This document shows, in pieces, positions 30,219 through 39,201 of a stretch of DNA of 46,234 nucleotides (positions within the stretch are counted from its first letter, which is position 1; every line of letters begins with the position of its first letter). The stretch comes from a virus (taxonomy: Duplodnaviria > Heunggongvirae > Uroviricota > Caudoviricetes), in IMG/VR virus record IMGVR_UViG_2718218309_000006; one strand, given 5' to 3'. The position numbers and the translations under genes are program-made. The notes below the pieces were generated by a model, which did no database searches, was not told the origin of the DNA, and worked only from the letters and a program-made list of their open reading frames with translations.

Positions 30219-30581
30219 TCATTCATTCCCCATTTCGGTGATGGTCAGTTCCAGCCTCCCACCTTTGGTAACAGGCATCTTCACAACGCGGTAATCAACG
30301 ACCTGAGCATCATCCAGCCAGAAACCTGCTTTAGTGAGTGCGTCAAAAGCGGCTTTTTGCAGATTATCCAGGTCACGGCGACGGCGATCCGGCATGTGGC
30401 ACTCAATGCGGATTTTCACAGGCATAGCCAGGCCGATATCCAGCATTGCGTTTTTAATGATTCGGGCGACGTTATCGCGGTATGCCTGCCCCTCTGCGCT
30501 GACGTGCGTGCGCCCGCGATTATGGCGGTAATAGCGATTATTGCTCGGAGGCCAGGGTAATGTGATGCTGTAGGTATTCAC
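30219..30581 (-). CDS. rusA: Holliday junction resolvase RusA
   Basis: 120 aa, [54 protein letters not shown]... Confidence 0.92.
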
Positions 30582-31031: not shown

Positions 31032-31486
31032 TACGCCTCCTGCTTGTCGCGGAGCAGCTGGAACTCGCAGCTCTGCGGAATAGTCAGGTGGCAGCCAATA
31101 TTCACCGCCCAGGCTTCAACCTTACACAGGAAGACATACATCTCTCCGGTATCAAGATCGGAGGTATGGCGTAACGACTGGATAGTGGTGATATCACCGG
31201 TTACGACATCAACCAGGTCTTTGGTTTCATAACCGAGATATGTGTGTTTGAGAGCATCTTTTACCCAAGCTGGAGTAGCGAACGTTTTACCCCTGCTGAT
31301 GAGGTATTCACTGATTTCGCTGTACCACATGTGGCTGAGTGCATTCTGGGAAAGACTGCGTTTCTCACGCCACGGTTTAAGCACCATGCGAAAGCATTTG
31401 CCCTCCTCCAGATAAGGCTGGATCTGCCGACCGATAGCGGTGAAGTTACCGCGATGTAATTTGATGCCATCTTGTGGGAGATTCAC
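31031..31486 (-). CDS. NinB-family recombination protein (YbcN-like)
   Basis: 151 aa, [58 protein letters not shown]; resembles DLP12 YbcN as recalled. Confidence 0.8.
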
Positions 31487-31680
31487 GCTTCACCTCCGCA
31501 GAGGTCAAACGCTGGATACAATATATCGCAGGTGCATTTCTGCATCTGTGAATGGAGAAGATAGGTTGGTTTGTATGTGCGCATAAACGTCCCCGTTTAG
31601 CGCAGAAGTCACCGGAGTTGTTCAGGCTCCAATGGCATGATTATGGCTGGTTGATTATTGGAAATCAAATGTGCTGAAAA

Positions 31681-32190
31681 TTAGTCTGCCAAGTCTTCCT
31701 CAGTCGCAACTGGGTAATTCCAAATATCAAAAAAAGCTATAGCCTCCTGCCATTTGCTCCATAAGTTATCAAGTACTTGTGTAGGTTCCGTACTTTTAAA
31801 AACAGAATCAGCCGCATCACCGTTATGAACTTCCTCGTACAGTTCCATTATTAGCAGATTAACAAAGTACTGTTTCAACATTAATGCCTGATTACCTTCT
31901 TTCTGCTGGCTATCCTGCTTGATGATCTCCATCGCCCGTACTAGGCACCTGATGATATCCGCTGCATCATTAACGCTCCATTCAGATCCGCGCTTATCTT
32001 TAGCTGATGAATTGGCTCTCTCAGCGCAAGCCTTTAAAGACTCATAAAGGTAAACTCTATTTTGTAGCTGCAGCGCTTTTTTTGACGTGTACCAACTTGC
32101 AAGCGCCGACCCCGCTGCGGCTAATGTGCCAAACGCAGAAATACCTGCTGCTATTGCACTTAAGTCGGCACTGTCAAAGTTCCACATCAT
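31681..32190 (-). CDS. Hypothetical protein, unknown function, with N-terminal hydrophobic segment
   Basis: 169 aa; DLSAIAAGISAFGTLAAAGSALASWY likely TM/signal anchor, acidic C-terminus; AT-rich flanks of about 190 and 150 bp; no family recognised. Confidence 0.5.
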   Translation of the reverse strand: MMWNFDSADLSAIAAGISAFGTLAAAGSALASWYTSKKALQLQNRVYLYESLKACAERANSSAKDKRGSEWSVNDAADIIRCLVRAMEIIKQDSQQKEGNQALMLKQYFVNLLIMELYEEVHNGDAADSVFKSTEPTQVLDNLWSKWQEAIAFFDIWNYPVATEEDLAD

Positions 32191-32508
32191 CGTTACACCT
32201 TATATAAATACCCCTCAGTAATATCCAATAAGGTATGTGCACAATCAATATAATTTTATCCGTATCGGCACATAGCGATTTGAAGGCTACTGGTAATGGT
32301 ATATTTTAGATTATATCGTCCAGTTTACAGCACCCGTATTTTATGAAATGGACTCGCATATTACCCAAAAAATGCCAGCACTTCCGTCATCGTAGAATGC
32401 TGGCAGTATTTCTAACTAGTGACTTTATTGGAACAGATTCTGACGGAAATATGGTAACACTCGACTCCACTTATCATCCAGCCACGGCTGGAATTTTACA
32501 TGTGCCGT

Positions 32509-32748
32509 TTATCTGGCGAGGATTGCTCGCGCTCTGTTGAGTATCTGGGGATATTCATGCTCGATAGAAGTAAAGCGGCCGGCTTCGCGGTGCTCCGCAA
32601 CCTGAAGTAGTGGAGTAACGTTCTGGCAGGCAGTTAACATCACATCACCTGCTCGCCATAACCAAGCACGTGCACAAAGTTTGTTATCAGTGAATTGTTT
32701 TGTGATTGGGTATTGTTGAACTGCTAGAACGAGAACGCCAGCATCCAT
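32509..32748 (-). CDS. Hypothetical small ORF, possibly a gene remnant
   Basis: 79 aa, no recognisable family; lies between the orphan ORF and the recombinase gene. Confidence 0.25.
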   Translation of the reverse strand: MDAGVLVLAVQQYPITKQFTDNKLCARAWLWRAGDVMLTACQNVTPLLQVAEHREAGRFTSIEHEYPQILNRARAILAR

Positions 32749-32859: not shown

Positions 32860-34386
32860 TCAAAAATAAACCTCACCATCAACCATATATTTGAGAGTAC
32901 TTATCGCCTGCTGGGCGGATATTGTTTTCATTAAAGGATAGTGTTTAAAAACAATGCCATTCATAAAATAGATATCACAGGTTTTATTATCTGTATTGAT
33001 TATGATTTTTTCGAATGTTTTATAGGCAAGTGTACGACATAGCTCTCGCCCATTTTTACTGGTTAAGTCAATAGCATGAAAATCACCAAGTGAACTCACC
33101 GCTTTACTCTTCAAAGTTTTTAATGATACAGAAGCCCTTCGTAATTCCTTATCTAATACTCTGATTTTTTCTGCTATAGCGGTAACTTCAGGCGCAACAG
33201 ATAATGCAGCAATTAAATTATTAATTTTCATCTGGAGCTCAATAATTTTCAACTCTAAAGTTTCATTAGCATCTTTCTTGTTTTCAACTGGTTGGATTTT
33301 ACTACAATTAAAAAGCAACTCATTAATGATATTATAATCAACCAAATCTCTCTTTATTGATGGCCTGTCACATCGATGCAGTCTTCTCATCGGACAAACA
33401 TAATAGCCATGCAAACTTCCAGATACCGCATGAACAATCATGGTATTACCACAAGCCTCGCACTTCATAACTGTTCGAAGTAGATTTATCAACATAGGAT
33501 TTTTGCTACTATTGCTAATACCAAAAGGTGCCAACCGAATTTCCTGCACAGCGTAAAACAAATCATCTGATATGACTCTGGGATAATAGCCAGCGATTTC
33601 ACTTATTCCTTTACCTCTTGCACGATATGAAGGTACGCATATACCTATCAGAGCTTTATTCGCTAATAATTTTTCAATTACAGAAGGTCCCCATGCACTT
33701 TCTTTTCCTGAGAAATTCTTTACAGCATGATCATTTAAATACTTGGCTATTGCATTCAATGAGCGCCTTTCCATCCTGAGTTTAAAAATTAGCTCAATAG
33801 TTTTCACCCTGTCGGGGTCTGGAACAAAAGCCGTTCTTTTGTCATCCAATGAGAGCCATCTCGGACAAGACGCCGTCATAATCGTGCCTGACTCCAGTGC
33901 ATCCTGCCGTTTTTTCTTCCATGATAATTTAACCCGACTTGACTTTATCTCGCTTTCTTCATTTGCCCTTTGTGCTATAAGTATGGCTTTTATTAATGAA
34001 TATGGCTCATTCAATGAGTCAATATTATAGACTGTATTATCGCAAAGAGTTATAACATCAATACCGTGATTCAAAATCAATTTCAGACGCTCAATCGCTT
34101 CACCGACTTTTTCTCTTGAAAGTCTGTCCAGACTTTCAACTAACAATGTAGTCCCTGGCAATATATAACCATGTTCTATAGCATCTAAAAATTCCGAAAA
34201 AGCTCCTGATTGTGCATGCTTTCCATTGAATGCGCTTAACCCCAAATCTTCATACGTTACGGTATCAAGGTAATAATCACTATTTACCTTTAGCCATTCA
34301 GTAATAAGCCTTCTCTGGCGGTTTAATGAATCACCAGACATCTGACCTGGTGATGAAAATCGCATATATGCTATGGCTTTTTTCAT
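32860..34386 (-). CDS. Large serine recombinase (YbcK-like)
   Basis: 508 aa; resolvase-type N-terminus AIAYMRFSSPGQ...LLVESLDRLSR, recombinase domain, Cys-rich zinc-ribbon (CEACGNTMIVH...YYVCPMRRLHRCDRP), coiled-coil C-terminus. Confidence 0.85.
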   Translation of the reverse strand: MKKAIAYMRFSSPGQMSGDSLNRQRRLITEWLKVNSDYYLDTVTYEDLGLSAFNGKHAQSGAFSEFLDAIEHGYILPGTTLLVESLDRLSREKVGEAIERLKLILNHGIDVITLCDNTVYNIDSLNEPYSLIKAILIAQRANEESEIKSSRVKLSWKKKRQDALESGTIMTASCPRWLSLDDKRTAFVPDPDRVKTIELIFKLRMERRSLNAIAKYLNDHAVKNFSGKESAWGPSVIEKLLANKALIGICVPSYRARGKGISEIAGYYPRVISDDLFYAVQEIRLAPFGISNSSKNPMLINLLRTVMKCEACGNTMIVHAVSGSLHGYYVCPMRRLHRCDRPSIKRDLVDYNIINELLFNCSKIQPVENKKDANETLELKIIELQMKINNLIAALSVAPEVTAIAEKIRVLDKELRRASVSLKTLKSKAVSSLGDFHAIDLTSKNGRELCRTLAYKTFEKIIINTDNKTCDIYFMNGIVFKHYPLMKTISAQQAISTLKYMVDGEVYF

Positions 34387-34641
34387 GGTGACACCTGCTA
34401 AAGTATGCTTTTATAAACCTTAGTGGTGAGATATGATTTTTGTTTAATTTTTATTTAAAAAGACAATTAAGGTCACATTATCTTAAATATACAACAATAA
34501 TCGTATTGCAATTTTCTTACACCATAATCCTGAAAGCACAAAAGAATGAATAAAAACTAAAGACATTAACAAAAAGCATAAAACGAGGCCCATATAAATA
34601 TACGAACCTCCATATTTTAGTCGTTTAAAAACAAATTATTT

Positions 34642-34974
34642 TTAATGTGGTGTGCTTCGTGACAATAAATTAATAACCAACACACCGGCACAAATCAACA
34701 TCATGCCTATAATGGCTGGCAGGTCCAACCGTTGGCCGAAAAATCCCCATGATAGTAAGCTAATCAGGACAATACCGACTCCTGACCAGATAGCATAAGC
34801 AATCCCTGTAGGAATATAAGCCAGCGTCTGAGCTAATAACCAGAATGATGCACAATAACAAATAATTGTACCAACAGATGGCCATAACCGTGTAAAACCT
34901 TCTGAAAACTTCATTAAGGTTGTACCAATGACCTCTGCAAGTATTGCACCACCAAGATAAATATAAGGATTCAT
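34642..34974 (-). CDS. emrE: Small multidrug resistance efflux transporter EmrE (SMR family)
   Basis: 110 aa from MNPYIYLGGAILAEVIGTTLMKFSEGFTRLWPSVGTIICYCASFWLLAQTLAYIPTGIAYAIWSGVGIV; four TM helices. Confidence 0.92.
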   Translation of the reverse strand: MNPYIYLGGAILAEVIGTTLMKFSEGFTRLWPSVGTIICYCASFWLLAQTLAYIPTGIAYAIWSGVGIVLISLLSWGFFGQRLDLPAIIGMMLICAGVLVINLLSRSTPH

Positions 34975-34989
34975 AGCATATTCTTTCCT

Positions 34990-35024
34990 GTTCAAACTGG
35001 AGAGAATTGTACTACAGTTTGAAC
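34990..35024. repeat. Perfect 10-bp inverted repeat (GTTCAAACTG / CAGTTTGAAC, 15-bp spacer) between ren and emrE
   Basis: Read directly from the sequence, just upstream of the emrE start. Confidence 0.6.
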
Positions 35025-35041
35025 TCAACTCACCTGTTTCA

Positions 35042-38688: not shown

Positions 38689-38809
38689 TACCAATTAAAA
38701 ATTATCAACTGGGCATTGTGCTCATTCAGTAAAGAACTAATTCCTATCTTTGCTCTAGGTAGTAATATTAAGCCACCGCAATAATATCTTTACCTAACGG
38801 CGTAAGAAT

Positions 38810-38836
38810 CCCGGTCACCGTGCCGGGTTTTCTTTT
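38810..38836 (+). terminator. Candidate terminator downstream of the cI-like gene
   Basis: CCCGG-tcaccgtg-CCGGG followed by TTTTCTTTT; short stem. Confidence 0.35.
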
Positions 38837-38929
38837 GCCCTCCCCTCATCACACACACACCGTTAAAAAAACCACCATAACCTCGCTTCAGTTATCGCTA
38901 TGCGATTCAAGTCACAAAATAAATCCATC

Positions 38930-39010
38930 CTAAATACAACCAGTTATATCTAAAACAACCAATAAAACAACTTTTGTTGTTGACGATAAAACAACTATAG
39001 TTTTAAATAA
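38930..39010 (+). promoter_or_regulatory. Candidate leftward early promoter/operator (PL/OL equivalent)
   Basis: Clustered ACAACCA/AACAAC motifs related to the 37933-37957 operator; TTGACG at 38980-38985 with a possible weak -10 17 nt downstream. Confidence 0.4.
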
Positions 39011-39201
39011 GTTCATCGCAACAACACAACGATACGGCAACTACCTGATTCACCGTTGCGATGACCGCTTAGATCCGCAGTTTGAATTTCAGCAGGCTTC
39101 GGGGAGTGCGAGGGGTGAAACGGACGCGTGAACGTCGGTGTGACCAGCTGAAATTAACTCAACATTTCATACCTTAGTCGCTTCAACGAGGCGGCTTAGT
39201 T

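Follow-up and report, generated by a model that had tools for sequence, protein, structure and literature searches.

The locus examined here raises the question of what a protein of 169 amino acids (aa) contributes to the lambdoid prophage that carries it. Its gene lies at positions 31681 to 32190, on the minus strand, of IMG/VR virus record IMGVR_UViG_2718218309_000006, a stretch of 46,234 nucleotides (nt) that is referred to as the window and to which coordinates refer unless another locus is named. The element in the window is the DLP12-like lambdoid prophage of Escherichia coli 55989/O104:H4, and a 901-bp stretch around the open reading frame (ORF) is 100% identical to 55989/O104:H4 genomes. 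An initial annotation, which left the strand unstated, took the gene for an orphan and for a lysogen-expressed moron, a candidate superinfection-exclusion or abortive-infection factor.

The reading we favour, with a probability of about 0.35, is a role in phage-versus-phage conflict at the inner membrane, either superinfection exclusion or abortive infection. It is favoured because the gene is rare, its alleles are diverse within one slot, its neighbours include defence cargo and it is retained in defective prophages, and by analogy with AbiP and a staphylococcal abortive-infection (Abi) protein. By profile match the protein is a member of phrog_1779, a family already catalogued, without functional annotation; membership as such says nothing on mechanism.

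The gene and its family

The gene and its ribosome-binding site are defined as follows.

31681..32190, minus strand: coding sequence (CDS), 169 aa, stop included (ORF list; RefSeq CDS WP_000990013.1; phrog_1779 member)
32196..32201, minus strand: Shine-Dalgarno sequence AAGGTG, 5 nt upstream of the ATG, as seen on direct inspection

The ORF starts with ATG and is labelled 'hypothetical protein' (WP_000990013.1) in the RefSeq annotation of E. coli 55989. In PhiR5_1 the first ATG of the gene is replaced by ATA, and the second ATG, giving 168 aa, may be the conserved start.

The orphan status first proposed did not survive database searches. Residues 1–169 match the full 169-position profile of phrog_1779 ('unknown function') in PHROGs with E = 1.2e-102, and 28/28 relatives tested were assigned to the same family. 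A word-indexed search of 5.8 billion proteins gave 15 clusters, and an exhaustive profile search of 1.84 billion representative proteins gave 35 clusters (50% identity), nearly all of 150–180 aa. Full-length homologues are present in several genera, and every examined context of the family is an enterobacterial lambdoid phage or prophage. Of 5426 complete E. coli genomes, ∼180 have the gene, in every case chromosomal and for the most part at least 99% identical, and another 26 have a divergent allele. Among 50,697 phage records, only three cultured phages contain a member, these being PhiR26_1, PhiR5_1 and Erwinia phage vB_EhrS_49; plaque-forming carriers of the gene are PhiR26_1 and PhiR5_1.

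The profile and structure-prediction searches that the initial annotation had recommended led to this family of unknown function but to no structural relative. Pfam, NCBIfam and PADLOC scans of the query protein gave no match, and Pfam and PADLOC scans of 38 relatives gave scattered, inconsistent weak matches only. With PADLOC-DB 2.0 the query had 0 matches and the matches of the 38 relatives were to different models, each in one or two members and with E of at least 0.0018. Sequence and profile searches of the PDB gave no match under E = 0.17, and no literature mention of WP_000990013, phrog_1779 or the PhiR phages was found.

A spurious or decaying ORF without function might be suspected, given that it is annotated only as hypothetical and lies in a defective prophage with several pseudogenes. 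However, the ratio of nonsynonymous to synonymous substitution rates (dN/dS) is 0.09–0.16 for allele pairs whose synonymous divergence is near, but short of, saturation, members from different genera and from active phages agree in length and motifs, and the core of the AlphaFold2 model is confidently predicted. Since dN/dS is low and full-length conservation extends across genera, the ORF is identified as a real gene under purifying selection, and these selection and conservation data refute the spurious-ORF explanation.

Predicted topology and architecture of the protein

Three segments can be distinguished in the protein.

32092..32163, minus strand: predicted N-out/C-in transmembrane helix, rich in Ala, Gly and Ser, with a conserved small-residue face (codons 10–33)
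31705..32091, minus strand: predicted cytoplasmic all-alpha domain, consisting of a juxtamembrane stalk continuous with the transmembrane helix and a helical bundle (codons 34–162)
31684..31704, minus strand: acidic C-terminal motif [DE]-x-D-L-x-D (TEEDLAD; codons 163–169)

This agrees with the N-terminal hydrophobic helix, helical body and acidic tail originally described. The uncharged N-terminal stretch of the window allele comprises residues 10–36, with a best 19-residue Kyte-Doolittle mean of 1.59 and flanking net charges of −2 on the N-terminal and +2 on the C-terminal side. Across the family, an uncharged N-terminal stretch of 18–30 residues is present in 41/41 members (19-residue Kyte-Doolittle means 1.5–2.5), the N-flank is net negative in 39/41 and the C-flank net positive in 37/41. 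The sequence thus shows, as a prediction, the bitopic N-out/C-in pattern of an uncharged stretch of at least 18 residues with a negative N-flank and a positive C-flank. Because of this charge-free stretch and its flanks, the protein is predicted to be a bitopic inner-membrane protein crossing the membrane once, N-out/C-in. A cleavable signal peptide was ruled out by the acidic n-region and the Lys-Lys after the helix. The window allele is the weakest among close alleles in helix hydrophobicity (again the mean of 1.59), and the predicted membrane anchoring is supported mainly by the family-wide conservation of the hydrophobic stretch. One relative, P0042 (288 aa), has a ∼135-residue N-terminal extension in which three extra hydrophobic segments, read by eye, lie ahead of the family helix, an arrangement that supports a membrane localization of the family.

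The helix is more conserved than the remainder of the protein, with a column entropy of 1.81 bits versus 2.23 bits elsewhere. S32 is invariant, A29 is conserved at 97% and A26 at 89%; nine positions (18, 21, 22, 24, 25, 26, 28, 29 and 32) are occupied by small residues in 92% or more, and bulky residues are limited to positions 20, 23, 27 and 30. Because the helix is more conserved than the soluble domain and carries an invariant Ser and a stripe of small residues, we read its conservation as the signature of tight helix-helix packing, atypical for a passive anchor.

Such a helix could also belong to a holin-like or lysis-timing protein, forming or modulating membrane lesions in the phage's own lysis control. 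The helices of pinholins and of signal-anchor-release (SAR) proteins resemble this Ala/Gly/Ser-rich helix with its conserved packing face, and the weak hydrophobicity of the window allele is compatible with a helix that leaves the bilayer. However, the flank charges, negative at the N-terminal and positive at the C-terminal side, are opposite to those of SAR signal anchors, the gene is never in a lysis cassette and sits in early, not late, operons, and the prophage is provided with lysis functions of its own (essD, rrrD and a spanin). A lysis function is thus very unlikely. The SAR/pinholin class itself was rejected: the Gly/Ala/Ser composition matches, but the predicted orientation is N-out/C-in, not N-in/C-out, and the gene is not in a lysis cassette.

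The AlphaFold2 model of the protein is all-helical, with a predicted local distance difference test (pLDDT) score of 81 overall and >90 in the core. No structural relatives of the cytoplasmic domain were detected with Foldseek, the best match having E of at least 0.48 and a template modelling (TM) score of 0.33 at most. A HEPN-type toxin was considered and rejected, as the neighbours are only these weak ones (E ≥ 0.48, TM ≤ 0.33) and the family lacks a conserved R-x(4-6)-H motif. The conserved polar residues are Q43, E50, N60 and K106, and there is no conserved His in the family. Since neither a conserved catalytic motif nor a fold match was found, the protein probably acts via binding and not via catalysis. 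The last 20 residues have a net charge of −5, and the isoelectric point (pI) of the protein is 4.6, compared with a family median of 5.1. The C-terminal [DE]-x-D-L-x-D motif is present in 25/38 members and a '-DL-' variant in three more, while members without it end soon after the FF motif.

Genomic contexts and a possible role in phage conflict

The gene order at the locus is emrE, ybcK (large serine recombinase), a P22AR-C (Rha/Roi-type) pseudogene, the 169-aa gene, a 33-aa ylcH-like ORF, ybcN (ninB), ninE, ybcO, rusA (frameshifted), ylcG and quuD. The upstream neighbour is

32425..32748, minus strand: Rha/Roi-type pseudogene remnant (P22AR C-terminal domain; marked in RefSeq as a pseudogene, with an internal stop), constant in this position in E. 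coli

In DLP12 of K-12 the same slot (ybcK – X – ylcH – ybcN) is filled by ybcL/ybcM, as the initial annotation had noted, and in lambda only 73 nt (tR2) lie between ren and ninB. Backbone homology restarts ∼20 nt past the stop codon in both E. coli alleles. The gene is thus inserted between genes that are adjacent in related phages, as expected of a moron in the sense of Hendrix and Juhala, and its composition differs modestly from that of its flanks, the G+C content being 0.439 for the ORF, 0.37 for the upstream spacer, 0.46 for the downstream 194 bp, 0.504 for ybcN and 0.508 for the window.

The E. coli contexts (48 IMG/VR loci, 3 GTDB loci and annotated phages) place the gene directly 5′ of the ylcH/ybcN leader, on the strand of P, ren, ninB and Q. 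Its upstream neighbour there is Rha, either intact, as in PhiR26_1, PhiR5_1 and ∼26/48 of the IMG/VR loci, or truncated by the emrE-ybcK insertion. Divergent alleles (∼43–45% identity) occupy the same slot, with upstream neighbours that are either Ead/Ea22-like plus a hypothetical protein or various unannotated proteins. More distant members (18–30% identity) fall into two groups by location. Those of loci L065 and L068 are at the replication-to-nin junction. Those of L056/57 (Pantoea), L062 and L067, like gp34 of the Erwinia phage, are in the early-left arm, with the repressor/N/recombination genes on one side and xis-int on the other. Contexts in the pR arm are those of E. coli, Enterobacter, Scandinavium, Phytobacter, L065 and L068, and contexts in the pL arm those of Pantoea, L062, L067 and vB_EhrS_49. 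From its distribution we describe the gene as a self-contained single-gene accessory cassette in variable slots of lambdoid early operons in Enterobacterales.

An all-against-all comparison of the neighbours of distant members revealed no conserved partner gene, save a gene for a DNA polymerase III theta (HOT-like) subunit directly upstream in two contexts, L056/L057 (7762–8004) and L059–L061 (e.g. L059 6160–6309). By eye, a probable remnant of a theta-like gene can also be seen in L067 upstream of 8001. These contexts bear on the idea that the protein tethers phage DNA replication or recombination to the membrane. In this view it would be made early, span the membrane once and use its cytoplasmic domain to recruit DNA or the proteins that replicate or recombine it. 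The precedent is p16.7 of phi29, the product of an early gene adjoining replication genes, which has an N-terminal transmembrane anchor and a cytoplasmic helical domain, and which is basic and binds DNA. DNA-metabolism genes always surround the phrog_1779 gene: O/P or DnaT/DnaB-loader genes precede it and NinB/NinG/RusA follow, or else it is flanked by Exo/Erf and methylases. The two theta contexts are independent, and the acidic tail is loosely like the acidic tips of single-stranded DNA-binding proteins. The likeness to p16.7 is one of architecture. However, the cytoplasmic domain here is acidic and hence unfavourable to DNA binding, no nucleic-acid-binding fold was detected and the theta gene is missing from most contexts. 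Since early regions hold most early genes anyway, the association with DNA metabolism is of little weight, and a tether is improbable.

In PhiR26_1-type phages the interval from ren to rha is filled by PD-lambda-1/SNIPE in the opposite orientation (L002 2842–4344; 13 IMG/VR loci, e.g. L028–L036). Its counterpart in the window, 32860–35028, holds emrE and the ybcK recombinase, with rha truncated. Because SNIPE and emrE/ybcK alternate in the same interval, we take the replication-to-nin junction to be a cargo-exchange hotspot. Defence cargo near the gene is PD-lambda-1/SNIPE and, elsewhere, an anti-oriented Pyocin_S gene or AAA_15 ATPase. The former encodes an 815-aa protein with an adjacent 90-aa ORF (L065 8673–11389) and the latter lies at L068 6900–8804, each inserted at this junction, shortly downstream of a distant member. 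In a metagenomic viral contig (L050 3599–5929), three co-oriented genes (267, 213 and 282 aa) lie directly upstream of the homologue, and this set is possibly a defence or accessory module.

The gene is also retained in damaged prophages. RefSeq records rusA (∼30219–30581) as frameshifted, rha as a pseudogene and the terminase large subunit as frameshifted (L001 2499–4423, L001 being the 55989 prophage), and because of these lesions the prophage is judged defective; the 169-aa ORF is undamaged despite the frameshifts in rusA and the terminase. Among 18 ybcK-type prophage loci the ORF is intact and rha truncated in all (18/18), and rusA is split in 2/18.

In the reading we favour, the phrog_1779 protein would have a short acidic N-terminus outside, one Ala/Gly/Ser-rich transmembrane helix in the predicted orientation, a cytoplasmic helical domain of ∼130 residues and an acidic D-E-D-L-x-D tail. 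The small-residue face of the helix would drive tight packing, either self-oligomerization or docking on a host membrane protein, and the cytoplasmic domain and tail would bind a partner. Another phage would then be hindered at the inner membrane, because its genome entry is blocked (superinfection exclusion) or because the membrane is permeabilized (abortive infection). It is this conflict function that we infer.

Known systems offer partial parallels. SieA, SieB and RexB are likewise small prophage-encoded membrane proteins from in or near early regions, and they act against other phages. Alignment with hhalign of lambda SieB and RexB and of P22 SieA and SieB nevertheless gave probabilities of 0.07–0.29%, that is, no relationship, and sieB differs in being anti-oriented to the pL operon with its own mapped promoter, while phrog_1779 genes are always co-oriented. 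The proposed candidacy for exclusion or abortive infection is thus consistent with the architecture of the protein, but finds no support in homology (hhalign <1% against SieA, SieB and RexB; no consistent PADLOC match). Lactococcal AbiP, of the AbiC/P group, combines an N-terminal transmembrane helix with an extramembrane domain, and its phenotype requires both (PMC13064643). The 169-aa protein is likened to it on the grounds of this architecture. AbiP differs in its origin from Lactococcus and in its binding of nucleic acids, the 169-aa protein having an acidic domain and a gene in a lambdoid early operon. In Staphylococcus aureus, a membrane-anchored prophage protein leads to abortive infection (PMC10127798).

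PD-lambda-1/SNIPE is an N-terminally membrane-anchored, single-gene, prophage-borne anti-lambda defence (PMC13190303). It shares the single-gene format and the N-terminal anchor, and in PhiR26_1 and the 13 IMG/VR loci it lies ∼1.6 kb upstream of the family gene. It differs in its size (500 aa), its DUF4041 and nuclease domains and its opposite orientation, and the query has no PADLOC match. HK97 gp15, too, is an extra gene between two genes adjacent in relatives; it is annotated 'moron product' and has a terminator right behind it. According to Cumby et al. in 2012, it is reportedly an inner-membrane superinfection-exclusion protein. However, gp15 has 62 aa and belongs to a late tail operon, and the gene in the window has neither a downstream terminator nor a promoter at scan level.

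Expression of the gene and the alternative of a lytic role

Three elements precede the gene.

32367..32405, minus strand: intrinsic terminator with a 10-bp G+C-rich stem and U6 (RNA fold UGCCAGCAUU...AGUGCUGGCA UUUUUU), just past the stop of the Rha remnant
32220..32248, minus strand: sub-threshold sigma-70-like motif TTGATT-17 nt-GATATT (8/12 matches)
32208..32236, minus strand: inverted repeat or hairpin ATACCTT...GGGGTAT (type A), which encloses the conserved TGGATATTA and travels with the gene

The terminator lies ∼175 nt before the ATG, and for the whole 91-nt folded segment that includes it the minimum free energy is −20.7 kcal/mol. It is conserved in PhiR26_1 and PhiR5_1 and its position is analogous to that of lambda tR2. 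The TTGATT-17-GATATT motif, below the threshold of 9/12 matches set for the consensus promoter scan, is embedded in the type A inverted repeat just 5′ of the Shine-Dalgarno sequence, and a core of TTG plus GGATATTA is invariant in five upstream regions that are otherwise 71% identical. A LexA box in the inverted repeat was rejected on its wrong spacing. Type A hairpins have the invariant loop TGGATATTA, and an unrelated type B hairpin (TATAAT-CCCCTC-N8-GAGGGG) precedes the divergent alleles L005, L006 and L055, with a perfect TATAAT in all three; each type is tied to one allele type. In L005 and L055 the type B hairpin runs into TTTTT-ATG, such that a terminator-like hairpin includes the likely ribosome-binding site. 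The conserved upstream elements could represent a weak or regulated promoter.

In lambda, a co-oriented gene behind a tR2-like terminator is expressed once early transcription is antiterminated. Because of the upstream terminator, the merely sub-threshold promoter-like motif and the absence of a downstream terminator, delayed-early expression would be at least as likely as lysogenic 'moron' expression. We infer that transcription in the 55989 prophage is most probably delayed-early, occurring when early-right transcripts pass the terminator behind the rha remnant; an own weak promoter is possible. The lysogen-expressed moron of the initial annotation thus stands as an inserted single-gene cassette of lower G+C content, but its putative expression in the lysogen is partly contradicted by the co-orientation, the upstream terminator, the sub-threshold motif and the missing downstream terminator.

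Several observations weigh against the conflict role. The helix of the window allele is of marginal hydrophobicity (summed Hessa ΔG of +2.7 kcal/mol), and its membrane anchor is a prediction. In all of ∼12 independent contexts the gene points the same way as the early operon, and the Pantoea homologue begins within the theta-like gene upstream, with a 4-nt overlap. The consensus scan found no promoter upstream on the gene's strand in the window. Nor is there an intrinsic terminator between its stop codon and ybcN in the window, so that the downstream terminator of its own expected of a moron is absent there, and a strong lysogenic promoter would read into ybcN...quuD. The early-operon exclusion or defence genes examined that are expressed in lysogens (lambda and P22 sieB, PD-lambda-1/SNIPE) are anti-oriented. 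The protein has no homology to any known exclusion or defence protein by PADLOC or hhalign, and the depositors of PhiR26_1, who named PD-lambda-1 there, kept the family gene as 'hypothetical'. Strong terminators do follow the homologues in L047–L052, L056, L062 and L067; these may be backbone terminators of the tR2/tL type.

The co-orientation and the Pantoea overlap are as compatible with an accessory gene of the lytic cycle as with a defence gene. As a lytic accessory factor the protein would do nothing in the lysogen, and would be translated from the antiterminated early transcript only once infection or induction has begun. Its target would be some component of the host's inner membrane: it could, for instance, inhibit a defence embedded there, modify a transporter or a protease, or tune cell physiology to phage growth. 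The orientation, identical whether the gene is in the pR or the pL arm and opposite to that of sieB and SNIPE, speaks for this, as do the terminator upstream, the absence of any other in the window from the gene onward to the nin genes or Q, and carriage by the plaque-forming PhiR26_1 and PhiR5_1. The acidity of the protein and its family also fits, many early anti-host proteins being acidic. On the other hand, the gene is rare and dispensable, with most relatives of the same backbone lacking it, a promoter-like core is conserved directly upstream of diverged alleles, the gene stays intact in defective prophages, and no search showed similarity to a known anti-defence protein. Because of orientation and operon structure, we regard a lytic accessory or counter-defence role as possible and rank it nearly as likely as the conflict role.

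The DNA on the other side of the gene is of interest in its own right.

31487..31680, minus strand: conserved structured ybcN/ninB leader, outside the cassette, overlapping the annotated 33-aa ylcH-like ORF (31483–31584)

Thus, of the AT-rich DNA initially reported on both sides of the gene, the upstream spacer (0.37 G+C) is as described, but the downstream 194 bp (0.46) is this leader. Its hairpins are at 31635–31610 (loop CCUGAACAA), 31603–31579 (loop GGGA), 31551–31526 and 31512–31487, the last of which occludes the GGAGG Shine-Dalgarno sequence of ybcN. Compensatory changes occur in 19/42 predicted pairs when seven loci are aligned (E. coli, Enterobacter, Scandinavium, Phytobacter and metagenomic viral contigs). 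Rfam gave no family match to the locus or the whole window. The leader may be a cis-regulatory RNA, and if it is, 'ylcH' may not be a protein gene.

A scan for transfer RNA genes found none. Elsewhere in the window, no N-like ORF of at least 40 aa is present between the S24-type repressor and kil (38689–39201). Several active Escherichia phages (PhiR34_1, Turner, 4A7 and others) share this ORF-free stretch of 513 bp with 84–99% conservation, and the antitermination mechanism of the phage group is not evident.

The gene is best filed as an uncharacterized variable-slot accessory gene of lambdoid phages. A bolder proposal, which we consider doubtful, is that phrog_1779 is an unrecognized class of single-component phage membrane effectors, in which a cytoplasmic sensor would control the oligomerization of the Ala/Gly/Ser-rich helix into a lesion or plug; this would amount to a new exclusion or abortive-infection mechanism or, conversely, to an inhibitor of membrane-embedded host defences. 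On present evidence the gene is not exceptional, and would gain interest only through the demonstration of a new mechanism of exclusion or counter-defence acting at the membrane. Should it be a lytic accessory gene, it would be one more nonessential early gene. If the conflict role is true, it would be a compact single-gene membrane-acting system from the replication-to-nin hotspot, a slot that also carries SNIPE, and with 169 aa, a conserved helix-packing face and the active carrier phages PhiR26_1 and PhiR5_1, it would make a tractable model.

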